Part shown: piece after piece, positions 2,747-47,561 of the stretch | How the letters are laid out: every line of letters begins with the position of its first letter | How positions within the stretch are numbered: position 1 is the first letter of the stretch | Origin: a virus | Lineage: Duplodnaviria; Caudoviricetes | Direction: 5' to 3' (one strand) | Length of the DNA: 64,000 nt | IMG/VR virus record: IMGVR_UViG_3300044297_000138 | Span: 96,001-160,000 of that record | Notes under the pieces: generated by a model | What the model saw: the letters and a program-made list of their open reading frames with translations, nothing else | Told to the model about the DNA's origin: nothing | The model's database searches: none | Translations under genes and position numbers: made by a program

Positions 2747-3057
2747 TGATTGACTACTATGAAGCACTGAAAGAAATGCACCAAGGTAATGTGGTCAAAT
2801 ATGTTGGTACTGTGAATGGCAATGTAATGAGCAACAATGGTGCCAGTTTCTGTATGTGTCGTGGTTGTATCTTTCTATTTGATAATGGAGTAATCAAATG
2901 GGACAAGTTAGGCTACATGGTTTACGATCCAGATTTTCGTTATGAACTAACCGGCGAAACTGTAAATCCGAGGGCGTGGAAACCAGAAAAGAAAACGGAC
3001 CGTAAAGAGATTAAATCCAAGTTAGGTTATAGTAGAATAGGATTGGATAATGTTTAG
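2740..3057 (+). CDS. Hypothetical protein
   Basis: AGGAG RBS; translationally coupled on both sides. Confidence 0.7.
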   Translation: MVMIDYYEALKEMHQGNVVKYVGTVNGNVMSNNGASFCMCRGCIFLFDNGVIKWDKLGYMVYDPDFRYELTGETVNPRAWKPEKKTDRKEIKSKLGYSRIGLDNV

Positions 3058-4429
3058 AGATGTAAAAGAAATGACAATTGAAGAACTTGAGAGAGAACTT
3101 CATGCACTTGAGTTGTTTCAGAATGAAATTGGTAAAGTTGGTGTAAACTCAATGTTATCTAAGAGTGTTGACACATCATTTTTGCAACCAATGCAATGCA
3201 CAATAACACCCAATGGTCAACTATTCAGGATTGACCGACAAGGTTTCTTACCTAAGATGATGGAAGAAATGTATGAGGATCGTAAGAAGTTTAAGAAGAT
3301 GATGTTGAAAGCACAACAGGAGTATGAGAATGAAAAAGATGAATCCAAAAAATATGATATTGAAAAACGAATCGCCAGATACAACAACCTACAGCTCGCC
3401 AAGAAAGTTTCTCTCAATTCTGCTTATGGTGCTCTTGGTTCTCAGTATTTCAGATTTTATGATTTGCGTATGGCTCTTGGTGTTACTACTGCTGGCCAAC
3501 TATCTATTCGGTGGATAGAAGCCAAGATAAATGATTACTTGAACAAACTATTGAAAACGAATGAAGATTATGTTATCGCCTCAGACACAGATTCAATTTA
3601 TCTCAAGCTTGGTCCACTTGTTGACAAAGTGTATGGTGCAGGACAAGATAAATCTGTCTCTACAAGAATTGACAAACAAAAGGTTATTGATTTCATGGAT
3701 CGTGTATGCGAAGATAAAATACAACCGTATATTGATAAAAGTTATCAAGAGCTTGCTAATTATGTTAATGCGTATGCACAGAAAATGCAAATGAAGCGAG
3801 AAGGCCTATCAGACAAAGGTGTATGGACTGCCAAGAAAAGATACATTCTAAATGTATATAATAACGAAGGTGTTCAGTATGCCGAACCTCATATGAAAGT
3901 GATGGGTCTAGAAATGGTGAAGTCATCTACACCATCGGCAATCCGTGAAAAGATGAAAGAAACAATTCAGTTGATGATGACTGGCACAGAAGAAGAGGTG
4001 CAACAGTTTATTGCCAAGTTTAGAGAAGAATTTAAATCATTGCCACCCGAAGAAATTTCTTTTCCAAGAGGTCTGAATGGGCTAAATACTTATTCCGATT
4101 CGGTGACTTTATATAAAAAAGGAACTCCAATTCATGTTCGTGGTGCAATCGTCTACAATCACCACCTCAAACAACTTGGTTTAGAAAAGAAATACCAAAA
4201 GATTCAAGAAGGTGAAAAGTTAAAGTTTACCTATTTGAAAATGCCAAATCATTTCAAAGAAGATGTAATTTCGTTTCCTGCCAGAATTCCCAAAGAATTT
4301 GGGCTTGACGAATATATTGATTATGACTTACAATTTGATAAGGCGTTTCTAGAACCCATCAGGATTATTTTGGATTGTATGAATTGGAAAGCCGAAAAAT
4401 CAAATTCATTAGAAGATTTTTTTAGTTGA
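3050..4429 (+). CDS. 43: Family B DNA polymerase gp43, C-terminal half (fingers, palm, thumb; gp43B-like)
   Basis: Motif B KVSLNSAYG, motif C ASDTDSIY, KKRY, C-terminal clamp-binding SLEDFFS. Confidence 0.95.
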   Translation: MFRDVKEMTIEELERELHALELFQNEIGKVGVNSMLSKSVDTSFLQPMQCTITPNGQLFRIDRQGFLPKMMEEMYEDRKKFKKMMLKAQQEYENEKDESKKYDIEKRIARYNNLQLAKKVSLNSAYGALGSQYFRFYDLRMALGVTTAGQLSIRWIEAKINDYLNKLLKTNEDYVIASDTDSIYLKLGPLVDKVYGAGQDKSVSTRIDKQKVIDFMDRVCEDKIQPYIDKSYQELANYVNAYAQKMQMKREGLSDKGVWTAKKRYILNVYNNEGVQYAEPHMKVMGLEMVKSSTPSAIREKMKETIQLMMTGTEEEVQQFIAKFREEFKSLPPEEISFPRGLNGLNTYSDSVTLYKKGTPIHVRGAIVYNHHLKQLGLEKKYQKIQEGEKLKFTYLKMPNHFKEDVISFPARIPKEFGLDEYIDYDLQFDKAFLEPIRIILDCMNWKAEKSNSLEDFFS

Positions 4430-15266: not shown

Positions 15267-15274
15267 TATAAATA
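15267..15274 (+). promoter_or_regulatory. T4-type late promoter TATAAATA
   Basis: Exact consensus in the intergenic gap ~40 nt before ATG 15316. Confidence 0.75.
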
Positions 15275-15315: not shown

Positions 15316-16518
15316 ATGTTAACTTTCAAGAGTTTTTTAAAAGAACAAACTGATCCTGAAGAAGGCGCAAGCCGCCAAATAAAACATCTAACACATGTTG
15401 AGGATCGTCCTTTGCAAAAGGGAGAATCTGGATTTAAACATGCCATCGGTTCACTAACGTCTGCGGCTGATCACATTGCAAAAGGTAAAAAGACTTCCGA
15501 ACTCACAACAAAATATGATGGTTCACCAGCTATTGTTTATGGTCATCATCCAAAGAATGGTAAATTTTTTGTTGCTTCAAAGTCAGCTTTCAATAAAACA
15601 CCAAAAATAAATTACACACCACAAGATATAGAAAAGAATCATGGCCATGCACCAGGTCTGGTTAGCAAATTAAAAGACGCATTAGAAAACTTACCAAAAA
15701 TTGCACCAAAAGAAGGTGTCTATCAGGGTGATATGATGTTTGGAAGTAGTAAGGGTGATAAAATTAAAGAAAAAGATGGCGGTCAGTCTTTTCATCCAAA
15801 TCCATCAGGACTAACTTATACTGCCCACGGTGATGAAGCAAATAAAGTTAAAAAAGCCAAAATTGGTGTTGTTACACATCTTTCATATCATGGTGATGAT
15901 GCATCAAATTTAAATGCATCACATGAAGTTAATCACGAAAAATTTCAACAACACCCGGATGTTTATTCTGTAGATCCAAGAATGGACACAAGTAAAGTTC
16001 ATTTCAGTCCAAAAGAAAAAAAAGAATTTGATAAACATATCAGAGCTGCACAAGCTTTACATGACACACACGGTAGTGACATGTATGCAGGCACAAGAGA
16101 TCACCAAGGTGTTGGTGGTCATTTGGAAACATATATGAATCATACGGTTAGAACCGGTGAAGAACCAAACCATGAAAACTTTAAAAATTGGCTTGAAACT
16201 AAGACAAACAAAGACATTGACAAACTAAAAGTTGAAAAGAACAAACAAACAAAACAAAAAGCTTTGTCTGATGAATTAGGTAAAGTCGAAAGAAACAAAA
16301 AACATTATAACAATCTTTTCAAATTACACAAGCATTTACAGAGCGCCAAGAATGTTTTAATAGGTGTATTAAATCAGCACCAAGAATTTCAACACAAACA
16401 CGCAGGTGAAGATGCTAATCCAGAAGGTTATGTTTTTCATCACAACAACGATTCAGATAAACTTGTAAATCGTGCTGAATTTTCTCGTAGAAATTTTGCT
16501 GGTATAAGGAACATTTAA
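15316..16518 (+). CDS. Ligase/nucleotidyltransferase-like protein (DUF6267-like) with capsid-targeting-like N-terminus
   Basis: Start reassigned to MLTFKSFLKE (GAGG RBS); TKYDGSPA (KxDG), YQGD, PEGYV, KLV motifs. Confidence 0.65.
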   Translation: MLTFKSFLKEQTDPEEGASRQIKHLTHVEDRPLQKGESGFKHAIGSLTSAADHIAKGKKTSELTTKYDGSPAIVYGHHPKNGKFFVASKSAFNKTPKINYTPQDIEKNHGHAPGLVSKLKDALENLPKIAPKEGVYQGDMMFGSSKGDKIKEKDGGQSFHPNPSGLTYTAHGDEANKVKKAKIGVVTHLSYHGDDASNLNASHEVNHEKFQQHPDVYSVDPRMDTSKVHFSPKEKKEFDKHIRAAQALHDTHGSDMYAGTRDHQGVGGHLETYMNHTVRTGEEPNHENFKNWLETKTNKDIDKLKVEKNKQTKQKALSDELGKVERNKKHYNNLFKLHKHLQSAKNVLIGVLNQHQEFQHKHAGEDANPEGYVFHHNNDSDKLVNRAEFSRRNFAGIRNI

Positions 16519-16519
16519 A

Positions 16520-17494
16520 ATGCCAATGTCTTTTAAAGGATTTTTAATTGTTGAAGGTCGTGGCAAAATGACAGCTTCTGGTTCAGCTGGCGCCGAACAT
16601 GTAAAAAAATATGTCAATCCATTTATTGGTTCTAAAGATTATACACATACATTAGCTGCTGAACATGATGATTTGCCAGCAGGTTCACATGTTAAATTGA
16701 AATCGGTGTCAAATATAAACGGAAAATATCATGTTAATGCCGAAGATCAAACCGGTAATGAACATACAATTCCAATTTCAAAATTATTTAAACCAGGTGA
16801 AGCTCCTGCCAATAAAGGTCACGATTACGAAAGTAAATTTGTGGAAAGAATGAAAAAACACGATATTATGCCATCACATTTGTCTGGCGCAGGTTCTACA
16901 GCAGGAACAGATTTTGCTATTGAAAATAAAAAGAAGGGTGTTTTTCATCCGGCCACAGTTAATGGAAATTTGTTAAACGGCGAAACTAAAGATGGTGTTA
17001 CAGCCGCAATGGGACAACTAACAATACATTACACAAAAGAAAAAGGTTGGCACATTGGAGATAAAGCAAGAAACAACCGACCTTTATATGCAAAACAAAT
17101 TGAAAAATCTGGAATTTTGAAACATATGAATCAACATTTTTCCGATCCAGAAAAATCCGAAACTACAGCATCAGGTCGTGCAAAAACAGTAGAAATCAAA
17201 CACCCTAATTTGGATCCAGCCGAATCTTATTTACAAGATCATCATGTTCATGTATTACAGGTTGGTGGTCATGGAACATATAGTGTCGGAAAATCCGATG
17301 CAACTGGACACGGATTGCCAAGAATAAGCGGCAAAGGTGTTTGGAGAATTCGTGAAAAACAAAAAGGTAATAAATTTGCTAGAACTGTTGCTTTTCATCC
17401 TGACGGTAAAAAAGGATTAAATAAGAGTAATGTTGATTTAGATAATGACGAACACCTTTTTGCATTTAAGAAAACTATAGGACACAAAGATTAA
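16520..17494 (+). CDS. PD-(D/E)XK nuclease-like protein, paralog of 8281-9027, with capsid-targeting-like N-terminus
   Basis: MSFKGFLIVE; GHDYE...GTDF...NGETK; LQVGGHGTY, LPRISG, WRIR. Confidence 0.6.
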   Translation: MPMSFKGFLIVEGRGKMTASGSAGAEHVKKYVNPFIGSKDYTHTLAAEHDDLPAGSHVKLKSVSNINGKYHVNAEDQTGNEHTIPISKLFKPGEAPANKGHDYESKFVERMKKHDIMPSHLSGAGSTAGTDFAIENKKKGVFHPATVNGNLLNGETKDGVTAAMGQLTIHYTKEKGWHIGDKARNNRPLYAKQIEKSGILKHMNQHFSDPEKSETTASGRAKTVEIKHPNLDPAESYLQDHHVHVLQVGGHGTYSVGKSDATGHGLPRISGKGVWRIREKQKGNKFARTVAFHPDGKKGLNKSNVDLDNDEHLFAFKKTIGHKD

Positions 17495-19351
17495 ATGAAA
17501 TCGTTTTTAGAAAGACTGCAAGACGAATCTAAAACACAAAAGCCAGTTGTTATGGCTTTTGGTAGAATGAATCCACCAACTACAGGACATGAAAAGTTGG
17601 TGAATAAAGTTCATCAGTTGGCCAAAGATTACAATGCAGATCACAAAGTTGTCATATCACATTCTATTGATGCAAAGAAAAATCCATTGGATCCAAAGAC
17701 CAAATTAAAACATGCAAAACGTTTTTTCCCTGGTACAAACATTGAAACATCCGATAAAGAGCATCCAACTTTCTTGCAACATGCCGCCAAACTATTTCAA
17801 CAAGGACACGATCATTTAATTATGGTGGCTGGTTCGGATAGAGTTAAAGAATATGAACAAAAACTAAAACAATATAATGGAACTGCACAAGGTTCACTAT
17901 ATAACTTCAAAAAGATAGAAGTCAAATCTGCCGGACAACGTGATCCTGATGCAGAAGGAACCGAAGGTATGTCAGCATCTAAAATGCGTGAACATGCTCA
18001 AAATAATGATTTTAATAGTTTCAAACAAGGAATTCCTTCTCATGTTCCAGAAAAACATGCCAGGGAATTATTCCGTGATGTTAGAAGTGGCATGGGTTTA
18101 AATGAAAATACCAACCGTGGTATGTTTAAGGCTGTTTTTGTTACTGGTGGTCCAGGTTCAGGTAAAGATATCATTCTGAGAGAAGCCATTGCTGAACAAA
18201 AATCTATTGAAATAAATCTATTACAAGCCTTTCAATATCTAGCCGATAAACAAAAATTGTCCGAAAAGACTGATGATTACCGTAGAAATGCGATTCGTAA
18301 TCGTAAACCATTGATTATTAATGGTCCAGCAGATAAACAAAATGAGATGTTTTGGGTTAAGGAAGAGTTGGAAGAACTAGGATACGACACGATGATGATT
18401 TTTGTTGAATCTTCCGATGAAGTTAGCAAAATAAGAAATGAAAAATTAACAAAGATGATTGCAGAATCCACCAGAAAAGTAAAGTGGAAACAAGCACAAG
18501 AAAGTAAAGAACAATACCAAAACTCCTTTGAACAATTTATCAGTTTGAACAATAGTGGTTCTTTGGAAGAAATAGAAGAAGATATCACAGATATATACCT
18601 AAAAATCAATAATTTTATTGAAGTTAAAATACTGAACGAAGAAGCTTACGTATGGTTAGAAAACCACGGTAAGCTAAATAATATCATTAACCATTCTTTT
18701 GTTGAGGAAGAAAATCATGTTAAAAAAGATTCTAGATTTATTCAAAGGCTCAAAGAAAGCAGAGGAAAGCCATCCTCTGGACTTCACGGAAAGAACAGCA
18801 GCGGTCCAAGACTCTACTCAGCCGGAGGTCCAGCAGCCAGTGGTCCAGGAGATATCCCAGCCGACAACCGAGCAAGTGACTCAGGAACAGACGATATCAA
18901 GTGGAACAGAAACGCCAAGCGAGGAAGTTACATCTTTAGAACCTACACAGAAGCCAAAGAAGGGACGCTCAAAAAATTCCCAGAGCCAAAAGAAAGCAAC
19001 TTCAGCAAAGACAAAGAAAAAGTAAAGAATAAGAAAAACAGATTTGTTGACTCACCAACAGTTAATCAAAGAGTGAGAAACCAATCTGGAATAGGATCTG
19101 AATTTGACACTCGCCAACAGGGAACAGTATACCCTATGTCTGGATTAGGCGATGTTACTTACAGAGAAGAAAAGAATTTTAATAAATTTAGAAAAGTTAT
19201 TAATGAATATAATGGCTTCCAAAATGACCAGGAATCTGGTTTTGGTGGTACATTAGGTGGATCTGATAATAAAGAACCCATTGAGAATCCAAAAGACAAA
19301 GTAGGATATACCTACGACATAATAAAAAGAAAAAAGGCAGGCAAAAAATGA
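17495..19351 (+). CDS. Phage cytidyltransferase-like protein fused to a P-loop kinase-like domain and low-complexity tail
   Basis: FGRMNPPTTGHEKL, KKNPL, MVAGSDR, MSASKMR; then VFVTGGPGSGKD. Confidence 0.8.
   Translation: MKSFLERLQDESKTQKPVVMAFGRMNPPTTGHEKLVNKVHQLAKDYNADHKVVISHSIDAKKNPLDPKTKLKHAKRFFPGTNIETSDKEHPTFLQHAAKLFQQGHDHLIMVAGSDRVKEYEQKLKQYNGTAQGSLYNFKKIEVKSAGQRDPDAEGTEGMSASKMREHAQNNDFNSFKQGIPSHVPEKHARELFRDVRSGMGLNENTNRGMFKAVFVTGGPGSGKDIILREAIAEQKSIEINLLQAFQYLADKQKLSEKTDDYRRNAIRNRKPLIINGPADKQNEMFWVKEELEELGYDTMMIFVESSDEVSKIRNEKLTKMIAESTRKVKWKQAQESKEQYQNSFEQFISLNNSGSLEEIEEDITDIYLKINNFIEVKILNEEAYVWLENHGKLNNIINHSFVEEENHVKKDSRFIQRLKESRGKPSSGLHGKNSSGPRLYSAGGPAASGPGDIPADNRASDSGTDDIKWNRNAKRGSYIFRTYTEAKEGTLKKFPEPKESNFSKDKEKVKNKKNRFVDSPTVNQRVRNQSGIGSEFDTRQQGTVYPMSGLGDVTYREEKNFNKFRKVINEYNGFQNDQESGFGGTLGGSDNKEPIENPKDKVGYTYDIIKRKKAGKK
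18717..19025 (+). CDS. Probable overprinted gene in an alternative frame inside the cytidyltransferase gene
   Basis: GAGGA RBS before ATG 18717; GCTAAATA late-like box at 18673-18680; 102-aa ORF MLKKILDLF... with acidic middle and Lys-rich tail. Confidence 0.55.
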   Translation: MLKKILDLFKGSKKAEESHPLDFTERTAAVQDSTQPEVQQPVVQEISQPTTEQVTQEQTISSGTETPSEEVTSLEPTQKPKKGRSKNSQSQKKATSAKTKKK

Positions 19352-20649
19352 TTAATCTTAACAAAAAAGATTCTGTTGCAGATTCAATAAAATCTATTTT
19401 AGAGAAAAAAGAGCTTTCTCCTAAACAGAAACAAATTGCTAAAATGTCTCCACCAGCAGATAAGATTGATGCAGGCGATTTAGCTAAGCTTCGTTCTGGT
19501 CAGAAACCAGTCAAAGAAGCAGCCAAAATGAAAGAAGAAGTGACAGACACACTAAAAGGTCGTGAAAAGAAATCTGCCGATCCTTATTTGTCTAAAAAAG
19601 TTAAGATTGCTGGTGATGTAAAAGAAGAAGTTGAACAAATTGAAGAAAAAGAAAAGTGGATTCAAAAGGCTATCAAAAAACCAGGTGCTTTACATAAACA
19701 ACTACATGTTCCTGCTGACAAAAAGATTCCTGCCGAAAAACTAAAGTCAGCTGCCGAAAAGGGTGGTAAACTAGGTAAGCGTGCCAACTTGGCCATGACT
19801 TTGAAAAAATTCAAAGAAGAAAACGAAGAACATTCAATCTATGACCAGATGATTCAGGAAGTTCTTTCTAAAGACGCAAAAGCTGGTGATTGGATTCACG
19901 ATTTCGTTCACTCTGATAATCCAAAGTTTGCTGGTAAGTCCAAAGAGAAGCGTAAGCAAATGGCTCTTGCTGCTTACTACGCAAAGCAACGTAATGAAGA
20001 AGTTGAACATGATATTTGTCCAGAATGTATGCAGGATCCATGCGTATGTGGTGGAAACCATGTTGAAGAATCGGTTGAACAGATTGATGAATTGTCAAAA
20101 TCAACTTTAGGTTCTTATGTGAAAAGTGCGGCAAGAGATGTTGGTGCTTCTCGTAAACTTTCCGCCGACTTCCAGAATCAGGCAGATAAGGCTAGAAAAC
20201 CTAGTTCAAAAGCAGCATCATCTAGTCTTTCCAAAAAATTCATGGCCACAGCCCAAAAGCGACATGCAGGTATTGGCAAAGCAGTCGAGCGTTTGACCAA
20301 AGAAGAATCTGAACAAGTAGAAGAAAACGCATTTGATTGGAAGAAACCAAAACCACCAGAATCAAAAGGTGGTTCAGGTGTTAAAGCTGGTCGTGCATAT
20401 GGTGGTGCTGCACAAAAGAGCAAACCAGAGCATGACGAACCAGAAGATAAAAAAAAAGTAACTGAATCTAAAAGACCAGAAACCGATAATGTTCCATTTG
20501 AAGGACCATACAATTCAACATCCAATCCGGTTATAACAGATAAATCTGGTGCAAAACATACACCAATGTCTAGAGTCAAACACTTGGCCAAACAAGCGAT
20601 GAAAAAAGTTAAAACTGAAATGCTTGGCAAAACAGGTACTTCTGAATAA
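19348..20649 (+). CDS. Modular Lys-rich protein with EExEQ(I/V)(D/E)E linkers; putative head-internal polyprotein
   Basis: Basic modules separated by KEEVEQIEE, EESVEQIDE, EESEQVEE. Confidence 0.65.
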   Translation: MINLNKKDSVADSIKSILEKKELSPKQKQIAKMSPPADKIDAGDLAKLRSGQKPVKEAAKMKEEVTDTLKGREKKSADPYLSKKVKIAGDVKEEVEQIEEKEKWIQKAIKKPGALHKQLHVPADKKIPAEKLKSAAEKGGKLGKRANLAMTLKKFKEENEEHSIYDQMIQEVLSKDAKAGDWIHDFVHSDNPKFAGKSKEKRKQMALAAYYAKQRNEEVEHDICPECMQDPCVCGGNHVEESVEQIDELSKSTLGSYVKSAARDVGASRKLSADFQNQADKARKPSSKAASSSLSKKFMATAQKRHAGIGKAVERLTKEESEQVEENAFDWKKPKPPESKGGSGVKAGRAYGGAAQKSKPEHDEPEDKKKVTESKRPETDNVPFEGPYNSTSNPVITDKSGAKHTPMSRVKHLAKQAMKKVKTEMLGKTGTSE

Positions 20650-20658
20650 GGTATAGAA

Positions 20659-21777
20659 ATGACTAAAAAAGCAAAAATAGTCAAAGATGCAGTAAAAGGA
20701 TGTGGGTGCGAAAAACCCACATTCGGTACTGATCCTAGAGATCCTTGGTCTGCAAAGGCAAACATTACCGAAAGTGCTTTACTGAATAGATATTTAAAAT
20801 CTAGAGGTATCAATCCAGAATTTGCTTCTAAGGATACAAAAGTTGCACACTCAAAAACAAATGCATTTAAAGTTTGGGCAACTGCACATTTGAACGATCC
20901 AGTTAAAGAATCTATGTCGGATGAACATACACCGACAGAAAAAAGATTACATACTCTAAAAAGAGCTATGCACTATAATAAAGAAATTCGTGTTGCGGAT
21001 GGTCATAAACAACTACACTCTGAATCCGTAGATAAAGAAGATGTGATTGCTTTTGATATTCCTCTGTTAATTCGTATGTTTGAATATGCTCGTGAAGATG
21101 CAAAGACAGATATGGATTTACATAAGGTTGTGGAAAAATTAATTAAAATCCGCAAAAAAGGCACCTTGACGATGAAAGACTATAAGTTCGTTACTTCAAT
21201 TCGTGAAGAGGTGCAAAGTGCTGGTGTTCAGTTGAATGAATTGTCACCAGAACTTCTAAATCGTTACAGAGACAAAGCTGGAGAATCAGCCAAAGAATTG
21301 GCCAATAAAGGCGAATATAAAAAGTCTAATAAACGTTGGATGGGTCACATGAAGTCTACCGGAAAACAGATTGAAAAGATGTTCAATAAAGAAGATGTTT
21401 TCCATGGATCAACCGCAGCCACACAAATGCCTTTTGACGGCGCAAACAATCCGGACGATGTTATTCCTGCAAAACGCAAAAATGTGAAAGAAATGTCAAA
21501 ATCAGCAAGGATCATCAAATCCATTTACAAACGTAAGAATGTAAAAGAAGAATTGTATGACCATGAAAAAGAAGATAAATCTGTTGCAACCTACGGTAAA
21601 AAACCCAAGTTCCAAAAACCTGGTGTTGATAGTGAAACAAAAGAATCACCACAAGCCGCAGCAGTTTTAAGTGGTGGAAAGACTATGACAGGTGCTTCAA
21701 GAGACACCATTGAAATTGATCCTATGATGAAAACCAAAAAACAAGCAATTTTCGGCTCACAGAAACCAATTAAATAA
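20659..21777 (+). CDS. Modular protein with (I/V/L)xE linkers; putative head-internal protein
   Basis: ITES, VKES, IREEV...QLNELSPELLNRY, VKEM, VKEE. Confidence 0.6.
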   Translation: MTKKAKIVKDAVKGCGCEKPTFGTDPRDPWSAKANITESALLNRYLKSRGINPEFASKDTKVAHSKTNAFKVWATAHLNDPVKESMSDEHTPTEKRLHTLKRAMHYNKEIRVADGHKQLHSESVDKEDVIAFDIPLLIRMFEYAREDAKTDMDLHKVVEKLIKIRKKGTLTMKDYKFVTSIREEVQSAGVQLNELSPELLNRYRDKAGESAKELANKGEYKKSNKRWMGHMKSTGKQIEKMFNKEDVFHGSTAATQMPFDGANNPDDVIPAKRKNVKEMSKSARIIKSIYKRKNVKEELYDHEKEDKSVATYGKKPKFQKPGVDSETKESPQAAAVLSGGKTMTGASRDTIEIDPMMKTKKQAIFGSQKPIK

Positions 21778-21812
21778 ATACAACATAACCCTCGGTTAAA
21801 AGGAGAATAAGA

Positions 21813-22178
21813 ATGTCATCTTGGGGAAACAACGATAATTCAGCTAACGCTCCATATTGGGCAGTTAGTTCCGCAATAGCACACAGTACAGCTGCAGTTA
21901 AAGTATCTGCACCAACAGCATCTAATGTTGCTATTTTGTATGCAAATACCACTTCCGGCGCATATATTGCCGGAGAAACTATTGGTCTTTTTGCTATTGA
22001 TGCGGCCGAACAAGCCAATAATCAACAACAACATGCCATTCCACATACCGGTTGGGTTTATAAAACCACTGGTTCTGGTGGACGTGCAGGTAGAACACAA
22101 TATGAAGTTCTTGTTGCCTTAGCACAAGTTAAAGGTGATGGCGATAACGGACTGATTGCAAATACTGCCAATCCATAA
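21813..22178 (+). CDS. Putative virion structural protein
   Basis: Ala-rich; HTGWV...GRAGR..YEVLVA; AATAAATA late-like box and AGGAG RBS upstream. Confidence 0.55.
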   Translation: MSSWGNNDNSANAPYWAVSSAIAHSTAAVKVSAPTASNVAILYANTTSGAYIAGETIGLFAIDAAEQANNQQQHAIPHTGWVYKTTGSGGRAGRTQYEVLVALAQVKGDGDNGLIANTANP

Positions 22179-22208
22179 TTAAAACAGGAGTTATAACTCC
22201 GATATACA

Positions 22209-22595
22209 ATGTTTGATGATTTGAATGATGAAAATTTCGTGATGTATGCGGTGAAACATTATAATTCACCACAATGCATTATGTCAGAATTTGAGGGAGA
22301 TATCAAGCGTACCAAGTATCTGAAAAGATTGTTTAGAAGATACAAAGTGACGAAATCACTAAAGGAACGCTTGATATTGAACCACATTATTCTATTGAAC
22401 AATGTTTTTGGTCCAGAGGTCACAGCAAGAATATTGTTCTATAAAATAGATGAACGTGACTACGATATACTAAAGACATTTTTAGAATATCTCAATATTA
22501 TGCCAGAAGCAGTATATGGTATCAGAGGTAAAAATTTTTATTCTTCCGAGATACCATTAAATTCAGATATCGCAGAGGTATTATTAAAGATATGA
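22209..22595 (+). CDS. Conserved T4-like hypothetical protein
   Basis: YNSPQC...EF..D..R.KY.KRL...LILNHII.L.NVFG. Confidence 0.7.
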   Translation: MFDDLNDENFVMYAVKHYNSPQCIMSEFEGDIKRTKYLKRLFRRYKVTKSLKERLILNHIILLNNVFGPEVTARILFYKIDERDYDILKTFLEYLNIMPEAVYGIRGKNFYSSEIPLNSDIAEVLLKI

Positions 22596-23458
22596 AAACA
22601 TTTAAAGAATATATCAACGAAGTCAAGAAGCCAACAGGACAATTAAAAGATGCTTGCTGGTCAGGTTATACTGCTGTCGGCATGAAAGAAAAGAATGGTC
22701 GCAAAGTTCCTAATTGCGTACCTGAAGAAGTTGAAATTCAAGAAGAATTCAAAAAAGGTGACAGAGTAAGACACAATGATGGCACATTAGGTACCGTAAC
22801 TAGAGAACCAGATGAGCAAGGCCTAGTTCAATGGAAACATGCGGGAAATAAACACCGTGTAAGTAGTAAAAATGTTTTGAAATCTGCTGCCGATGAAAAA
22901 TTTCGTTGGCGCCAGCAAAAAGAAGAAGTTGAACAGATTGATGAAATCAGTCAAAAAACTTTATCATCATATACAGCCAAAGCTTACAAAGATTATTCAG
23001 ACAGATTAAAAGGCTGGACTAAAAAAGGTCCAGAAAACATGGCAAAAGCCGATAAAAGATTTAAAGGCTTAACTGCTGCTGCAAAAAGAGGACCAAAGAC
23101 ACATCAAGTTCCTCCTGGAAAAGAACCAGTAGATAAATCTGGACGTCCATACTGGGGTGAAGAAACAGAACAGTTGGATGAAAAGTCAGCAGCATGGCAA
23201 CGTAAAGAAGGTAAGAATCCTTCAGGCGGTCTAAATGCAAAAGGTGTGGCATCTTATCGCAGAGAAAATCCAGGTTCAAAATTAAAGACAGCTGTTACAA
23301 CAAAACCATCCAAATTAAAACCAGGTTCTAAAGCAGCAAACCGCCGTAAGTCTTTCTGTGCAAGAATGGGTGGAATGAAGAAACGCCTAACATCAGCCAA
23401 AACTGCTCGTGATCCAAATTCACGCATCAATAAGTCACTAAGAAAGTGGAACTGCTGA
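22592..23458 (+). CDS. Modular protein with capsid-targeting-like MKTFKEYINE and EEVEQIDE linkers; C-terminal DUF6321-like module
   Basis: Modules CWSGY...VPNCVP, FKKGDRVRH, EISQKTLSSY, AWQRKEGKNPSGGLN...RRKSFCARM. Confidence 0.7.
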   Translation: MKTFKEYINEVKKPTGQLKDACWSGYTAVGMKEKNGRKVPNCVPEEVEIQEEFKKGDRVRHNDGTLGTVTREPDEQGLVQWKHAGNKHRVSSKNVLKSAADEKFRWRQQKEEVEQIDEISQKTLSSYTAKAYKDYSDRLKGWTKKGPENMAKADKRFKGLTAAAKRGPKTHQVPPGKEPVDKSGRPYWGEETEQLDEKSAAWQRKEGKNPSGGLNAKGVASYRRENPGSKLKTAVTTKPSKLKPGSKAANRRKSFCARMGGMKKRLTSAKTARDPNSRINKSLRKWNC

Positions 23459-23637
23459 TGAAAACCTTTAGACAGTTTAATGAAGATGGCATGGCCGCAG
23501 CACCAACAAATAGTGTTTCTGGTGTAGCTGGTTCTGGTGATTCCAGATTACCTGCATCACAAAGAGAACCTGGTGTTTCCAAAAAAAGAACTCCAATAAT
23601 CGTGAGGTTGGCTAGAAGAAAACTGCCAAATATGTAA
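23458..23637 (+). CDS. Small protein with capsid-targeting-like N-terminus
   Basis: MKTFRQFNE; start coupled to the upstream stop (TGATG). Confidence 0.6.
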   Translation: MKTFRQFNEDGMAAAPTNSVSGVAGSGDSRLPASQREPGVSKKRTPIIVRLARRKLPNM

Positions 23638-39909: not shown

Positions 39910-40188
39910 ATGAGAAATGACCAACTTTATATTTACAGCCTAATACTAGAGAAATACCTCCAAGATATGGAAATAGAAGTATTGACTTACCATGTGATGG
40001 AAAGATTCAAACTGGTAGAAAAGGACGAAATCTGGCCAGATAAGATTACACTACCATTACCATTCACACCGTTGCCACAAAGCAACACATGCCCCCTATG
40101 TTGGATTGACTTGAATACCACCATGTGTTATACTTGTATTAATCCCAAATGCCCAACCGGAATGGGACCACTCATGTGCAAGGCTTAA
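39910..40188 (+). CDS. Hypothetical protein with Cys-rich C-terminus
   Basis: CPLC...C..C...CP. Confidence 0.5.
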   Translation: MRNDQLYIYSLILEKYLQDMEIEVLTYHVMERFKLVEKDEIWPDKITLPLPFTPLPQSNTCPLCWIDLNTTMCYTCINPKCPTGMGPLMCKA

Positions 40189-40189
40189 C

Positions 40190-40384
40190 ATGGACTTCCT
40201 AGAATCTTTTTTCACAATTTCGGTATACAACCTCAATCTATTCAGTTTCATACTGGGTATGCTGTGGTGCATGATGAACATGACATCCTTTGGTAACCAG
40301 AAATCAATATGGTCTCAGATTCTACTTTATACCATCGGTGTTGCAGTCTACTATTATTGTAAATCAAAAGGTTTGATCCAATGA
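40190..40384 (+). CDS. Small two-TM membrane protein
   Basis: Two hydrophobic segments. Confidence 0.5.
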   Translation: MDFLESFFTISVYNLNLFSFILGMLWCMMNMTSFGNQKSIWSQILLYTIGVAVYYYCKSKGLIQ

Positions 40385-40674
40385 GTGGAAAATACTATGT
40401 CGTTTGTGGTAATCAGAATGAATTTAATGAGTTTATCAAAAGGAAAGCTTTTGAGTTATTCGGCCAAGGAAATACCTCTATAAGCCTTTCACAATTCGTA
40501 CATGTGGATAGTGTGGAAAAAATTAGAGGAATACACGAACCGACCGGATGGTTCTATGGTACCTGGAAGAATAATCCAAATATTGAAGTTATTATGATTG
40601 CACTTGCAGGTTCTCTTAACGGTATCAGACTACGAAACATTCAGAATCTTTGGAAGGAATACAGAAAAGGATGA
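40381..40674 (+). CDS. Hypothetical protein
   Basis: Coupled ORF. Confidence 0.6.
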   Translation: MSGKYYVVCGNQNEFNEFIKRKAFELFGQGNTSISLSQFVHVDSVEKIRGIHEPTGWFYGTWKNNPNIEVIMIALAGSLNGIRLRNIQNLWKEYRKG

Positions 40675-41270
40675 AAGTATATTTTATTTTAGATTCCGCA
40701 TCCAATGCTGTAAAGGTTGGTAAAGCCAATAACATACAAGAAAGAATGTCAGACCTACAAACTGGCAATCCAAATACATTGAAATTGATCCATCAAATTG
40801 AGTGTGAATCCGAAAAACAAAGTTTTCTATTGGAACAAACATTACATAAAAAATTGCAAGGTATTAGATTAATTGGTGAATGGTTCAGATATGATGAATC
40901 CATCTTTGCAGATTTTTTTGATGATAAATTGAATTTTGAAAGAACAATTAAACGGGAATCACTTGAATGGGAAACTTTGTTTGGTACAGAATCTTTTGGT
41001 TTAAAAGATTTTCCATGTTGTTTCTTTTATCCAAACTTAACTGCACAAATAATGTTAAGTTATGAGGACTCTGTGGGAAAGAGAGTTCCGTTTAGAACAA
41101 TGAAATACCCCACAGATGGCAAACAGATGCTTCTTCCTTATTCCATGGAAAAAGATAAAGTATTCATATCCGATAGAAAACACAAAGAGAACCTAAAATT
41201 GAAAAAATTCCTAAAATCACAGGAAATTCAAAATTCTCAGGTTTCTCCCCTAGAAAAATTTTTAGATTAA
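40671..41270 (+). CDS. GIY-YIG-family (T5orf172/MUG113-like) protein
   Basis: VYFI...VKVG.A....RM..LQTGNP...LE..LH...GEWF. Confidence 0.75.
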   Translation: MKVYFILDSASNAVKVGKANNIQERMSDLQTGNPNTLKLIHQIECESEKQSFLLEQTLHKKLQGIRLIGEWFRYDESIFADFFDDKLNFERTIKRESLEWETLFGTESFGLKDFPCCFFYPNLTAQIMLSYEDSVGKRVPFRTMKYPTDGKQMLLPYSMEKDKVFISDRKHKENLKLKKFLKSQEIQNSQVSPLEKFLD

Positions 41271-41413
41271 CAAAAATCGAAAACCTTGGGCCGGCCCCAG
41301 AAAATAAAAAATAGGAAAAAAGAGTTTGACCTGGTGGAGCTTTTTTAGCTAAGCGGTCACTCCCCATGGCCGGCCCCCTCCAGCCCTAGTCAAAAAGTAT
41401 TACACCAGTAGCC

Positions 41414-41440
41414 AAAAAAAAGGAGGCGCATAGGCCTCCT
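41414..41440 (-). terminator. Rho-independent terminator for the minus-strand block
   Basis: Minus strand reads AGGAGGC-CTATGC-GCCTCCT followed by a run of T. Confidence 0.8.
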
Positions 41441-41485
41441 GAGCAACCGATGAGCCGCCAGCATCCGCTGGTCTTACTGCTTATA

Positions 41486-42130
41486 TCAGGCCGCAACCGC
41501 TATCCGTATAACCTTGGCCATTTTCTTGCCGTGAGCGGGATAACCAATAACCGCTACATCCTTGGAGTAGCAGGCACGGCATGTAAGGCACTTGCCGCCT
41601 TGGTTATATGCCTGGCACACCGTGACACCAGCAGGTGCTGAGGTAGCATCAGGTAAAATGGTGGAGCCATGGACGCCAGGTGTGAAGGTGCCATCCACCG
41701 CATCGCTACTATAACGGACCATGACATTAGGTAAAGCTTGCATGGCTTTAAGCACTGCCTGGAATTTAGGGAATTTATACATCCGGGTGGGAAGCCAGTG
41801 CTTGGTGCCAGGAGTAGCTGTCATAATGGCCAGCATTTTCTCAGCCAATTCCAAGCTATACATATCGCCGGAATCAAACCAGCGGAAATGGCTGTCCTTG
41901 GACAGAGCTTTCACCATATCAGCGGTCCAGCCGTCACGCTGCCAGTCCGCCTTATTATCGGCACGGACAGCTTTCACGGGGCCAAAGTGGTACATGCCGG
42001 TGGTGGCGTAGCAACCAGAGCAAGCGGGAACCAGTGAACCGTCAGCGGCTTTGGAACCAGGGCAGGTTTCGAGAGCTTGCAGGGACCAGCTTTTGGTACC
42101 GAGCTTGGAGGTTTTTGAGAACTTGACCAT
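41486..42130 (-). CDS. Gp88-like phage protein (Cys-containing, radical-SAM-like)
   Basis: TCPGS...CSGCYA, FRWFDSGD, WLPTR, C-terminal C....C..CRAC; AAAGGA RBS. Confidence 0.7.
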   Translation of the reverse strand: MVKFSKTSKLGTKSWSLQALETCPGSKAADGSLVPACSGCYATTGMYHFGPVKAVRADNKADWQRDGWTADMVKALSKDSHFRWFDSGDMYSLELAEKMLAIMTATPGTKHWLPTRMYKFPKFQAVLKAMQALPNVMVRYSSDAVDGTFTPGVHGSTILPDATSAPAGVTVCQAYNQGGKCLTCRACYSKDVAVIGYPAHGKKMAKVIRIAVAA

Positions 42131-42143
42131 GTATTTCCTTTCA

Positions 42144-42182
42144 ACTATGGATGGAGTATACCATAACCAGTGAAAATGGCAA
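42144..42182 (-). repeat. 39-bp repeated early promoter, copy 1 (TTGCCA-16-TATACT, extended -10)
   Basis: Two mismatches versus 42667-42705. Confidence 0.85.
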
Positions 42183-42194
42183 CCTAATACTTTT

Positions 42195-42380
42195 TTATTC
42201 CACCTGGCTCAAGTGACAATCCGAATCCAGATAATCCGGATCATTCTCCACGTATTCCTGTTGGATGAGCTCCACCCAATCCATTGGTACCTCATGCTTG
42301 GCGGTTATCTCAGCAAAGGAAAGCCGGCCGGCTACTAGGTCTTCCTGGATATCCAGGACTAGGTTTGATATTTTGGACAT
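42195..42380 (-). CDS. Small acidic HTH-like protein
   Basis: AGGAG RBS; MSKISNL..DIQE.L....SF.EI......P..WV, similar to the ORF at ~50296-50467. Confidence 0.6.
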   Translation of the reverse strand: MSKISNLVLDIQEDLVAGRLSFAEITAKHEVPMDWVELIQQEYVENDPDYLDSDCHLSQVE

Positions 42381-42391
42381 AATTTTCTCCT

Positions 42392-42649
42392 TTAATTGGT
42401 TTGCTTGGCATCCATCATTTCCGAGAGGATATACTTGGCACGGTTCAAATACTGGCGGATGGTGTTATCAGCCTGTCCGTCAGGGAATGAACCAGCCATT
42501 TCCTGCAGCTCTTGGCAGTCCGAAAGGATACCCATGACCACCATTTCCAGACCGGAGACCCGAGCGGTCAGGCCTTCCATGTATTCCCTGCGGATGCCCT
42601 CGGTGGACATGCCGTAGCATTGCTTTTCAAATTCGGTGATATTAGCCAT
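42392..42649 (-). CDS. Hypothetical early protein
   Basis: GGAG RBS directly downstream of the repeated promoter. Confidence 0.7.
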   Translation of the reverse strand: MANITEFEKQCYGMSTEGIRREYMEGLTARVSGLEMVVMGILSDCQELQEMAGSFPDGQADNTIRQYLNRAKYILSEMMDAKQTN

Positions 42650-42666
42650 AATTGCTCCGTTTGTTG

Positions 42667-42705
42667 ACTATGGAAGGAGTATACCACAACCAGTGAAAAT
42701 GGCAA
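42667..42705 (-). repeat. 39-bp repeated early promoter, copy 2
   Basis: See 42144-42182. Confidence 0.85.
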
Positions 42706-42749
42706 TGGTATACTTTAGTATTCCATCCAGGGGATGGACAATGGCTTGC

Positions 42750-42989
42750 TTAATCCAGGAGGACCATGTAGGCTTTAGGGTTGAACCGGCGGAACCACTC
42801 CACACCGGTGCGGACGGTTTTGTAGTCTCCGAACCGCTCAGCACCCATGGTGATATCATACACCGTAACCTCCAGAGGGGTCAGCCATATGCTCTCACCA
42901 GAAAATGGATTGGTCACCTGTACCGGTTCCGTATCCACAACCACGCCACCCTCGAAGGGAAGCTTGTCAGCACTCATTTTAGCCATTAT
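42750..42989 (-). CDS. Hypothetical early protein
   Basis: GGAG RBS; ends FRRFNPKAYMVLLD. Confidence 0.65.
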   Translation of the reverse strand: MMAKMSADKLPFEGGVVVDTEPVQVTNPFSGESIWLTPLEVTVYDITMGAERFGDYKTVRTGVEWFRRFNPKAYMVLLD

Positions 42990-43061
42990 GGTCTCCAATA
43001 GAAAATGTCCAACACCAACACCAAAGCTGCAGCCGCATATACGGCTGCCAGCACTTTTACC

Positions 43062-43367
43062 TTAAGCTGCAACAGCATGAGCAGCCTCCGCACCTTTATA
43101 CACTACAGCCTTGCTGGGACGCTTGGCGGCTTTGATAGCCTTAGTGCCTACAGGCTTGGCCTGCTTTTCAAGCAACCGCTGCAAGCGAGCCTGAGCACGG
43201 ACGATAGCCTGCTCACGCTTTTCCTGACGGGCGGTGGCACGAGCTGCACGCTCTGCCGATTTAAGGATTTTAGCTTCCACACGGGCTTCCTTATGGAGCT
43301 GGCGGAGCGCCTTGATAATAACAGCCTGATCCTTCAGGCTCATGGCTTTGAATTCATCGGTCAACAT
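43062..43367 (-). CDS. Ala/Lys/Arg-rich basic helical protein
   Basis: AAAGGA RBS; promoter at 43397-43424. Confidence 0.65.
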   Translation of the reverse strand: MLTDEFKAMSLKDQAVIIKALRQLHKEARVEAKILKSAERAARATARQEKREQAIVRAQARLQRLLEKQAKPVGTKAIKAAKRPSKAVVYKGAEAAHAVAA

Positions 43368-43396
43368 AAAATGTCCTTTCGTTTGTTGATGGTTGA

Positions 43397-43500
43397 ATTA
43401 TGCACGAACCAAGGGGAATGGCAATATTAAACTTTTTTCTTACAGGGGGAAAACTGAGAACCTTTGTCTGAATTGCCATGGATACTGGTTCGCTTATAAT
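43397..43500. promoter_or_regulatory. Back-to-back divergent promoters
   Basis: Minus: TTGCCA-16-CATAAT (43424-43397). Plus: TTGCCA-16-TATAAT (43473-43500). Confidence 0.75.
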
Positions 43501-43743
43501 TGGTACCAGATTCGAAGCCAAGCGGGATGCACACGGAGCCTGGCCGTTATATTCGGTCACCATCGGATGAATACTTTTGTTTGCGGGGCACCAGAGGAAA
43601 AGAAACCAAAGAATGGCTCTGTGACCTTCCGTATTCAATCCTGAGTGATCCTGAAAACAAATGGCATCGTTGCCAGAAACTAAGTCGGACTAATACCAAA
43701 GGTCTAACGCTCGGTTGCGCTTCACCATGCGAAATTTGCGAAG

Positions 43744-43804
43744 TTATCCACAGCTTATCCACAGCCATCACTTTTTGACTGTTTTATCCACAAAGTTATG
43801 CACA
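43744..43804 (+). promoter_or_regulatory. Cluster of four DnaA boxes
   Basis: TTATCCACA at 43744, 43755 and 43784; TTATGCACA at 43796; all the same orientation, in non-coding DNA. Confidence 0.85.
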
Positions 43805-43846
43805 GCCTTTGGATCGGTTAAAACTTTTTTACTGGTTTATTCCAAT

Positions 43847-43893
43847 GGAATACTATGGTATACGCTTGCCAATTCTACCAATTATGACATAAT
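43847..43893 (+). promoter_or_regulatory. Early promoter with upstream element
   Basis: GGAATACTATGGTATA-CGC-TTGCCA-16-CATAAT. Confidence 0.75.
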
Positions 43894-43924
43894 CTAACCA
43901 TCAAAACCAACAAGGAATGACGAT

Positions 43925-44098
43925 ATGAAACGAAATGATTACATTGCTCTGATTATAGAGCATATTGTGAACCAAGGTTATAAATCTTCGGATGCTTTTG
44001 TGAACTATATTACTAATGAGTTGGTCAATATGAGTACCGAAGCATTAGCCGATGAATTGGAAGCTTTGGAAATTAATGCTATTGGTCTCAGTATGTAA
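43925..44098 (+). CDS. Small acidic early protein (57 aa)
   Basis: AAGGA RBS after the promoter. Confidence 0.55.
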   Translation: MKRNDYIALIIEHIVNQGYKSSDAFVNYITNELVNMSTEALADELEALEINAIGLSM

Positions 44099-44141
44099 TC
44101 TTTGGTTCTCTATCGTAAAAATGGAGAACTAATTGATTATA

Positions 44142-44169
44142 TTGACATTTTTGTGTTTTTGTGTATAAT
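44142..44169 (+). promoter_or_regulatory. sigma70-type early promoter
   Basis: TTGACA-16-TATAAT with TG extension. Confidence 0.8.
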
Positions 44170-44192
44170 GATTGTATTGAAAGGTTGACAGA

Positions 44193-44444
44193 ATGAATAC
44201 TATTCACTACGGTAAGAAGGAAGAGTTACAAGGTAGATTTTTAATACCTTTTTCTTGCTCTGATATTGTCGGAATACGGACTGAGCTTCGGCCACACGAG
44301 CGGACAGATGCTGAGAATAAAGTATTAGGTACGGTTTCGGATCGTATTACTTTGGCATTACAAGAGCGTGGGTATGAGGTGGTTAGTATTAGTTTTTGGT
44401 CTATGTTGATTTCAGCAGTAAAAAGTGAGGTAAAAAGTGTTTGA
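44193..44444 (+). CDS. Hypothetical early protein
   Basis: AAGG RBS after the promoter. Confidence 0.55.
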   Translation: MNTIHYGKKEELQGRFLIPFSCSDIVGIRTELRPHERTDAENKVLGTVSDRITLALQERGYEVVSISFWSMLISAVKSEVKSV

Positions 44445-44665
44445 GCTTGTAAATATTGACGGATTGTGGAATGTTGTATACAATGGTACGATAGTAGATA
44501 CTTTTGTTTTCAGGCAAGAGGCTGAGGATCACATTGTAGTGCTTAGGTATGAAATGGATCATGCATGGGATAACTTTGGTATGGAATTTGATGAAATGAT
44601 TGAAGTTTGAGTTAATTAGTATTCACTACGATAAGGTGAATACTTTAGTAATCCATGAGGTAAAT

Positions 44666-44714
44666 GGAATACTAAAGCATTCGTCTTGACAAAGCGGATG
44701 GTTTCAGGTAGAAT
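44666..44714 (+). promoter_or_regulatory. Early promoter with upstream element
   Basis: GGAATACTAAAGCATT-CGTC-TTGACA-17-TAGAAT. Confidence 0.75.
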
Positions 44715-44740
44715 TATTGCATTGATTGAAAGGTGAATTT

Positions 44741-45004
44741 ATGCGGAACTCTGACATTGTGGACATGGTTGACGATATGCTGAATGATGAAGGTCCGGTG
44801 CAAATCGGTAACCTGACATTTGACCGCTCGGAAATCGTGCGCCGGTGTGACCCTACGGCTTATCGTATCATGGTCAATGAATACATTGATTCAATGATTG
44901 ATGACCTTAGGTACGACCAAGAGCGTCTGGACCCTGAAACCGATATGGCTGAACATCAGGAAATTCAGGAACGCATTGATGAATTGGAAGGTGCATATCT
45001 ATGA
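44741..45004 (+). CDS. Acidic hypothetical protein
   Basis: DML.D.G.V.IG.L.F..S.I....DP.AYR pattern. Confidence 0.65.
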   Translation: MRNSDIVDMVDDMLNDEGPVQIGNLTFDRSEIVRRCDPTAYRIMVNEYIDSMIDDLRYDQERLDPETDMAEHQEIQERIDELEGAYL

Positions 45005-45109
45005 GGTACGTTTGTGGTGGTAAATCGTTTCGGACTTATGAGAAAGCGTTAAGGTACGCTACCCATCAGTTTATGGAAAACGGCATTATTCTTGGAATTG
45101 AGGTAAAAC

Positions 45110-46317
45110 ATGGTTGATATGATGGATTTAATTGATAAAGTCATTTACCAGATCCAGCGGGATGTGGAAAATGGTGATTTTGATGCGGTGATTGAATTGC
45201 TGAGTTTCTTACCTGCTGATAAACTGCAAGGTTATCTGCCTGAAGGTACGGAAGTGTATGATGGCCAACCTGACGAAGCGCAGGAATGGCATGATTTTGA
45301 TCCTGAATGCTGATGAGGTAAAGTATGATTGAATTGAATTGTTTGTCCGTTGCAGGTGGTTGGCAATCCCACGACCAGGTAACAGGTTTGACCTTTGGAC
45401 CCGTGTTCAATGAGGTAAACGACCTATGGAATTGGCAGAAAGCCAATCCTGTAGAAGGTAAGGTTGTCGTTAAAAGCCTGATGACAGGCGCAGGTGTGCT
45501 GATTGATGAGGACACGCCTTGGTGCTGCAACCCTGCATCGGAGACCTTTTGGAGTATGTAAAATGAAGTTGGTAAGACATTTCAAAGTAATATGTAGCCA
45601 GTGCTCGGATGAGCATTCGGTAGAGGATATCCGTGTGCTCAATGTAGAGGAAGATTACATGGGGCGGGATATTTGTTTCTTTGAATGTCCTATCACCGGT
45701 CAGGTAACAAAAAGCAATGTTTATGGAGAACAGTAAAATGGACTTTTTAATCCGTGCTGAGAGGTACGCCGAAGCCCGTGGTGATGAATATTGGTTCAAG
45801 GATGTGTATACATTTTACCGCCAAGATAATAATATCACCGAATCGGTGTGGAAAACCCTGTCGTACCTGTATGATGATTATACGGCCGACCTGTTGGAGT
45901 TCCAATGATGGATTTTAAATTTTCACACTATGTATCTGGTTCAGGTAGAACCTCCATATTTCATGGAATTCCTGTTCAATACAGGGAAGAGGTACTGCGC
46001 CGGCTTAAAAATGCAGGTATCAAGGTCAAATTGCGTTATCGTGGGCCTAGAGCACACAATTACAACCGTGGACGATTTACCAATAGTTGTTCCTGCCTGA
46101 TGCGGGATGCTGTGACCTTTGCGGTGTATCCAAAATGAAGGTCAATCCTGCAACTCTGGACGCTCTTAGGCGAGCGGCAGATATCATGCGCTATCAGAAT
46201 AAACAGATGGAGGTCAAACGATTGGACGAAGCCCTAAGACAGGAGAAGCTGCGCCTGCAAAGGTTAAGGCCGTCCAATGACCCGACCAAAGGTCAAAATG
46301 TTGACCAAAATGCTTGA
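45110..46317 (+). other. Run of six small early hypothetical ORFs (45110, 45325, ~45563, ~45738, 45905, ~46135)
   Basis: Tightly packed plus-strand ORFs, several with GAGG/GGAG RBS; no function assignable. Confidence 0.6.
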
Positions 46318-46363
46318 GAACTTTAGTATTAAGGTTGCCAATTCTACCAATTCATATTAGAAT
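46316..46363 (+). promoter_or_regulatory. Early promoter with upstream element
   Basis: GAGAACTTTAGTATT-AAGG-TTGCCA-17-TAGAAT; 18 bp identical to 43866-43883. Confidence 0.75.
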
Positions 46364-46392
46364 ACAACCATTGATTGAAACAGGAGATTGTT

Positions 46393-47466: not shown

Positions 47467-47492
47467 ATACTTTACTCTTACTTTTTATAAAT

Positions 47493-47538
47493 GGAATACT
47501 TTTGTCTGAATTGACAAAACCGACCAATCGTGTATAAT
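47493..47538 (+). promoter_or_regulatory. Early promoter with upstream element
   Basis: GGAATACTTTTGTCTG-AA-TTGACA-16-TATAAT. Confidence 0.8.
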
Positions 47539-47561
47539 GAATGTTTTGAAAGGATATTGTG

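Follow-up and report, generated by a model that had tools for sequence, protein, structure and literature searches.

Chains of small protein modules joined by recurring acidic linkers are encoded by three open reading frames (ORFs C, D, and G) in a 64,000-nucleotide stretch of viral DNA, here called the window, from IMG/VR record IMGVR_UViG_3300044297_000138 (Duplodnaviria; Caudoviricetes). We consider it somewhat more probable than an even chance that these ORFs encode late precursors of head cargo, which would be loaded into the capsid and cut by the phage's head protease. This assessment draws on comparative evidence: the genome carries a protease gene of the T4 gp21 type, the linkers fit the L/I-X-E cleavage rule of that enzyme, ORF G begins with a leader resembling the T4 capsid targeting sequence (CTS), relatives obey a junction rule in front of one module family, leader and junction accompany large genomes, modules are shuffled among relatives, and the modules are predicted to fold separately.

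The ORFs, linkers, and promoter-like motifs described for the chains lie on the + strand; positions are given in window coordinates unless stated otherwise. ORF C (19348..20649) is a 433-residue module chain in which the canonical leader is absent. Its linker 1 (residues 93-100; 19624..19647), conserved in relatives L005-L009, ends in I-E-E, linker 2 (residues 240-248; 20065..20091) in I-D-E, and linker 3 (residues 319-326; 20302..20325) in V-E-E. ORF D (20659..21777; 372 residues) has conserved N- and C-terminal parts and a variable middle that holds extra modules in relatives; its junction (residues 183-194; 21205..21240) is a weaker linker ending in L-N-E, and is the insertion point in those relatives. 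ORF G (22592..23458; 288 residues) comprises a leader, a β-hairpin module, a small β-barrel, a helical hairpin, and a DUF6321 module. Its linker 1 (residues 45-52; 22724..22747) contains I-Q-E, linker 2 (residues 111-118; 22922..22945) reads EEVEQIDE, and linker 3 (residues 190-197; 23159..23182) ends in L-D-E directly before the DUF6321 module (residues 198-288; 23183..23455). The latter is assigned by Pfam (PF19846, E 1.2e-19) over residues 207-286 with 71.1 bits, the gathering score being 28.5, and has a net charge of +23 and an isoelectric point of 11.7. A Pfam scan of C and D returned nothing significant, and no enzyme or peptidase domain was found in C, D, or G by Pfam and PHROG scans. 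A regular expression for the linker matched 16 times in the 51,768-residue whole-genome proteome, with six of the matches in C and G, together 1.4% of that proteome. An earlier first-pass annotation of the window, made from the letters alone, had described the three ORFs as module chains with recurring acidic linkers that look like prohead-protease sites. The ORFs and linker positions were confirmed here, the linkers end in [ILV]-x-E, and their fit to the gp21 rule is matched by a gp21-type protease in the same genome.

The window spans bases 96001-160000 of a 174,535-base record that CheckV rates as complete. Nearly all of its genes are on the + strand, and they include a split family-B DNA polymerase, UvsX, a primase, and ribonucleotide reductase. 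Outside the window, T4 gene order is kept through gp13-gp20, a gp67-like gene, gp21, gp22, and gp23, while UvsX is nearest to that of T4-like phages of Stenotrophomonas, Xanthomonas, and Caulobacter (59-65% identity). On the basis of this gene content, the head-gene order, and the UvsX affinities, the phage is an uncultured marine relative of T4 and probably not a cyanophage. Its prohead protease belongs to Peptidase_S77 (PF03420, E 4.3e-34; genome positions 67041-67496), and the His and Ser motifs align with those of T4 gp21. In T4, gp21 cleaves after Glu in L/I-X-E, cuts the scaffold proteins gp22, gp67, and gp68 at many such sites inside the prohead, and takes the 10-residue CTS off internal proteins (PMC9026906). 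The phage's own scaffold protein, a gp22 homologue, likewise contains many [IL]-x-E motifs, and its capsid protein has L-N-E at the place corresponding to the gp23 cut site L-T-E of T4, upstream of the first conserved block.

The T4 CTS is MKTYQEFIAE, of which residues 4 and 7 function in targeting, and residues 8 and 10 in processing (PMC9026906). The leader of G, MKTFKEYINE (22592..22621), resembles it and agrees at all of these positions (F4, Y7, I8, and E10). Such a leader opens 92 of the 120 relatives of G listed. Among 79 distinct leaders from these relatives, F occupies position 4 in 68, F or Y position 7 in 69, I or L position 8 in 61, and E position 10 in 70. Leader-like starts are found in five of the 225 ORFs of the genome, all within 15316-23637; besides G, the pattern is matched loosely by ORF H and by the neighbors at 15316, 16520, and 17495. 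Literature searches returned no description of a capsid targeting sequence in cyanophages or marine T4-like phages, nor any of DUF6321.

The junction in front of DUF6321 follows the protease rule well beyond this phage. A Glu stands within three residues before the module in 92 of 92 relatives, and [LIVM]-x-E directly precedes it in 91 of 92 database relatives, the rate at positions picked arbitrarily in these proteins being 7.9%. The 48 distinct junction octamers have L (27), I (11), V (7), M (2), or F (1) at P3, with P2 variable. A comparable register is seen for the WIHDF-type module of C, which, when N-terminal in relatives, is preceded by a short leader ending in [IL]-x-E. An additional site is therefore predicted in C at I-Q-E (residues 169-171; 19852..19860), directly before this module.

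DUF6321 is organized differently in different types of phage. In five of five podophage isolates, it is a free protein of 72-94 residues that starts at the module, with neither leader nor junction, and in two T7-like podophages its gene lies between the scaffold/capsid genes and the next structural genes. Of 80 IMG/VR loci, 19 encode bare DUF6321 and about 10 encode a 10-residue leader fused directly to the module, which is the layout of a T4 internal protein; the remainder are chains with the junction. A direct search for S77 in DUF6321-carrying contigs located the gene in one of 36, most of these contigs being fragments. The comparison was therefore based on the handful of complete records and on implied genome size, calculated as record length over CheckV completeness. 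The implied genomes are 39-122 kb for the bare-form records (ten searched), whereas all 19 records with leader or junction imply genomes of 165-363 kb. In two complete genomes with bare DUF6321 (68 kb and 117 kb), no S77 was found. What is new here about this family, which has no assigned function, is its distribution: forms with leader or junction occur in large T4-like genomes, and small ones carry the bare form.

Further observations on DUF6321 concern its neighbors and its place in the chain. In the T7-like podophages P-SCSP1k (L019, 559-977) and HTVC304P (L021, 437-801), it adjoins a second small Lys/Arg-rich protein, the pair being located between the capsid and tail tubular genes in the former and between the scaffold and capsid genes in the latter. 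A cryo-EM paper on P-SCSP1u does not mention small basic genes between capsid and adaptor. The Lys/Arg-rich protein is also a module in myophage chains, after I-Y-E in Sf-FS3 gene 167 and after L-L-E in L062. In an 867-residue relative (L085, 1-2600), DUF6321 stands mid-chain, with I-T-E before it and further modules after it, so the module is not always C-terminal.

Modules of all three proteins recur widely. Relatives number at least 7,994 for G, 4,198 cluster representatives for C (in a search without a word index), and 1,425 for D at E ≤ 1e-3. In relatives of C, which are proteins of 104-1379 residues, the matches cover single modules, wherever in the protein these lie. Among 380 homology blocks from 150 database relatives of C, 115 start at residues 236-245, at linker 2, 78 end at residues 216-225, and 75 end at residues 321-330, at linker 3. 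Individual IMG/VR relatives of C illustrate the exchange: one carries between two linkers a module that the window has in G (L012), another has two additional modules (L009), and a third has a different module order (L013). Two further IMG/VR records (L014 and L015) encode a 105-residue gene product consisting of leader, short linker, and DUF6321. In relatives of D, alignments break and extra modules are inserted at residues 181-194, with acidic [ILV]-x-E linkers bordering the inserts. The same modules occur in cyanophage proteins, and the linkers of Sf-FS3 gene 167 are very similar. Matches to isolated phages by tblastn were few (three for C and two for D), all weak and partial. Modules are thus found alone, reordered, and in other genes, with borders at the linker, which was the subject of a check proposed in the first-pass annotation. 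The helical module of D (residues 111-182; 20989-21204) has a sole match in deposited phage records, at 47% identity, in the 735-kb uncultured phage LR756501.

AlphaFold models of G and C are consistent with this modularity. For G, the mean predicted local distance difference test score (pLDDT) is 69.9 and the predicted template modeling score (pTM) 0.28, with folded blocks at residues 21-44, 51-97, 121-165, and about 210-288; pLDDT falls below 50 at residues 99-113 (linker 2) and 184-204 (linker 3). For C (mean pLDDT 71.9, pTM 0.32), folded blocks are modeled at about 100-220, 250-327, and 395-426, and pLDDT is below 50 at residues 235-246 (linker 2). Both proteins are accordingly modeled as separate folded blocks, like beads on a string. 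A single folded domain spanning the whole protein, which the first-pass annotation had named as a finding contrary to its polyprotein proposal, is not what the models show. A Foldseek search of the G model against the PDB gave no match at E ≤ 1e-3; the small barrel is weakly KOW/Tudor-like, a likeness too slight for any function to be drawn from the fold.

The chains belong to two gene runs that may be transcribed late, judging from late-promoter-like motifs that they have in common with head genes. The first run (15316-21777) is headed by a T4-type motif, TATAAATA (15267..15274), located 42 bases upstream of the first leader-bearing gene, whose start is at 15316. The second (21813-23637) is headed by ATAAATA (21774..21780), 39 bases upstream of the ORF at 21813. 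An ATAAATA core also stands upstream of the gp18, gp19, gp67-like, gp22, and gp23 genes of the same genome. ORF B (17495..19351), a cytidylyltransferase/P-loop fusion (phrog_3041, E 7.9e-69) with a leader-like N-terminus, has a stop overlapping the start of C. ORF H (23458..23637), whose start overlaps the stop of G, encodes 59 residues with a leader-like start and a basic body. Some of these families have virion records in other phages. The T4-GC190 family of cytidylyltransferases, to which ORF B belongs, was found by mass spectrometry in the virion of cyanophage S-SM1 (PMC3037559), and other cyanophage virions are reported to contain NMNAT-like proteins (PMC9602691). Among relatives of the chains, the record of Sf-FS3 labels gene 168 structural, and that of cyanophage S-SCSM1 labels the multimodule product of gene 29, with DUF6321 at its end, a virion protein; the S-SCSM1 study used mass spectrometry to identify virion proteins (PMC9602691).

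Combining these observations, G, and probably the whole gene run, would be taken into the assembling prohead, G by means of its 10-residue tag of the T4 CTS type. The gp21-type serine protease would then cut after the Glu of each [ILV]-x-E linker and free separate small proteins that would stay associated with the DNA in the capsid and may accompany it into the host. The released pieces would include the very basic DUF6321 protein, the small β-barrel, and helical hairpins. The linker would also be the point at which evolution swaps modules.

Several observations weigh against this interpretation. The N-termini of C and D, tested against the leader pattern, do not fit it, so that these two proteins would need another route into the head. 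The genes for C, D, and G are some 45 kb away from the cluster of head genes, amid replication and lysis genes. The cutting specificity of the phage's protease is carried over from T4 by analogy, and packaging, cutting, and a DNA-binding or injected role are likewise inferred from comparison. Linkers 1 and 3 of C are modeled with fair confidence as helix ends and not as loose loops, which argues against their free accessibility. DUF6321 itself works without such processing in phages that do not have this protease. The first-pass annotation had called the modules basic, which holds for most of them, including DUF6321, but not for every predicted fragment: with the acidic tail attached, G 11-52 has a net charge of 0 and G 53-118 of +2, because the acidic linker would remain on the upstream fragment after a cut. 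Finally, the supplement of the S-SCSM1 study (PMC9602691) does not list gene 29 under the names tried and so did not confirm its annotation as a virion protein.

Part of this counterevidence would be accommodated if C, D, and G were ordinary multidomain nucleic-acid-binding proteins of the infected cell, neither packaged nor cut, with acidic stretches that act as spacers or charge-balancing helices. Such proteins would suit a setting among replication and lysis genes and the presence of DUF6321 in phages without the protease, and [LIVM]-x-E motifs as a whole are only modestly enriched (2.1-2.3 vs 1.5 per 100 residues). Plain spacers, however, would not be expected to keep a three-position protease-site motif at 91 of 92 junctions, nor to co-occur with a T4-type leader only in genomes of T4 size. 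The annotation of relatives as virion proteins, with the reservation given above for S-SCSM1 gene 29, and the late-promoter-like motifs upstream also speak for a head role, and we regard the purely intracellular explanation as unlikely.

A slightly smaller probability is assigned to a reading in which the leader loads the proteins but is the only part removed, the internal linkers staying uncut and the cargo being an intact multimodule "polyvalent" protein. T4 internal proteins are indeed cut once, beside the CTS, and polyvalent phage cargo proteins that stay multidomain are known (PMC5512222); the helix ends at linkers 1 and 3 of C may be poorly accessible. Yet P3 and P1 are conserved at the internal junctions while P2 and the flanks vary, and the same motif ends the leader. 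Moreover, gp21 cuts the T4 scaffold protein gp22 at many sites of this kind, and the models show low-confidence, exposed stretches at linker 2 of C and at linkers 2 and 3 of G.

The first-pass annotation had further proposed that the linker is conserved as DNA and could act as a recombination joint for swapping cassettes. In a rival reading built on this, the linker would matter chiefly as DNA, and its peptide would have no function. An exact 18-base repeat does occur at 20074-20091, in linker 2 of C, and at 22928-22945, in linker 2 of G, and module breaks fall at linkers. As a DNA signal, the repeat was rejected: local codon bias alone gives identity of all six codons for the same hexapeptide in about 6% of such pairs (p ~0.056), so the repeat provides no evidence for joints at the DNA level. 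The exactness of the repeat therefore stands, but its conservation as DNA does not follow, and the joint proposal is not upheld. The remaining linkers differ in DNA, and the peptide rule holds in distant relatives while the sequence varies, which leaves a DNA-level role improbable. Equally, a single module type had been said to recur after linkers in all three genes. What these stretches share is a short motif: pairwise BLASTP among the copies in C, D, and G gave E 0.02, no match, and 0.049, and a profile built from 70 C-type copies scored those in D and G below shuffled controls, so homology is not demonstrated. Least probable of all are precursors of ribosomally synthesized and post-translationally modified peptides, with a leader and multiple cores as in cyanobactins, since a conserved leader, repeated recognition-like sequences, and Cys-rich mini-modules are outweighed by the lack of maturation enzymes among the neighbors in Pfam and PHROG scans, by modules that are folded domains of 40-90 residues, and by the setting in a T4-like phage with a matching head protease.

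Head-cargo precursors of the proposed type would have partial precedents. The closest known system is the set of T4 internal proteins with a CTS, which have a 10-residue leader that shares the key positions and terminates in I-x-E, basic bodies that are highly diverse behind the conserved tag, an S77 protease, and, as may be the case here, late expression. The T4 internal proteins are single modules cut once, whereas the chains described here contain up to five or six unrelated modules with the cut-site motif at every joint. There is also no sequence similarity between the T4 internal proteins and C, D, or G; C and D have no leader, and the chains are known from sequence. Precedent for cutting at multiple sites is given by the T4 scaffold and core proteins gp22, gp67, and gp68, single polypeptides with many L/I-X-E sites. 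Most of the resulting pieces are expelled, and they do not form folded modules, unlike the domains found here, which also exist as free-standing genes. The giant phages phiKZ, 201phi2-1, and SPN3US have a T4-related protease that cleaves many of their head and inner-body proteins behind the Glu of a short motif, and they deliver cargo into the host by ejection (PMC9026906, PMC10052503). Their motif is a different one (S/A-X-E) and the proteins are large; neither a repeated cassette linker nor shuffled mini-modules are reported for them. A conceptual precedent is offered by the polyvalent proteins found in phages and conjugative elements (Iyer et al. 2017, PMC5512222), which are many-domain proteins predicted to travel with DNA, show mosaic shuffling, and are likened by their describers to viral polyproteins. 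They carry enzymatic effector domains and embedded peptidases; the modules here are small, none of those domains was detected, and release would require the head protease to act in trans on the recurring linker.

More tentatively, and with a probability that we place below even, the chains may reflect a general cassette system for capsid loading in marine T4-like phages. Any small protein that follows an [ILVM]-x-E joint would be carried into the prohead by its leader-tagged chain and released, and because the head protease would free whatever stands behind a joint, the payload could be quickly rebuilt by swapping modules. Ocean metagenomes hold thousands of such chains. Some of the modules, such as DUF6321 and the small Lys/Arg-rich protein, are the same units that small podophages keep as free genes beside their capsid genes. 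If the head-cargo interpretation is correct, the T4 capsid-targeting and processing rule, known from a few coliphage proteins, would also cover ocean phage genes that are very numerous and abundant, and the way in which such phages vary what enters the host would be explained. It would also give the uncharacterized DUF6321 a concrete, testable setting and point to a natural "tag plus cut-site" design for placing several proteins in one capsid. Cultured cyanophages that carry relatives make these predictions testable at once; cultured carriers include S-SCSM1 (gene 29), S-RIM8 (gene 097), P-RSM1 (CPPG_00199), and Sf-FS3 (genes 167 and 168).

The surroundings of the chains contain additional genes of interest. 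According to Pfam and PHROG scans, neighbors of C, D, and G include a cytidylyltransferase, DUF7207, a spanin-like protein, and a lysozyme-like protein. Three enzyme-like genes upstream have leader-like starts: the gene at 15316, a nuclease-like protein at 16520, and the cytidylyltransferase/P-loop fusion at 17495. As they follow the TATAAATA motif and bear leader-like peptides, they may be capsid-loaded enzymes. Within the cytidylyltransferase gene, a 108-codon ORF runs in another frame (18699-19025).

Elsewhere in the window, the region 40000-48000 has a raised G+C content (0.41-0.47 vs ~0.36 elsewhere) and few long ORFs; a tRNA scan of the whole window, this region included, found no tRNA genes. 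The family-B DNA polymerase is divided between two genes, an N-terminal one (148-1449) and a C-terminal one (3050-4429), which correspond to positions 6-438 and 438-851 of PHROG 262, respectively, and are separated by about 1.6 kb with several small ORFs.

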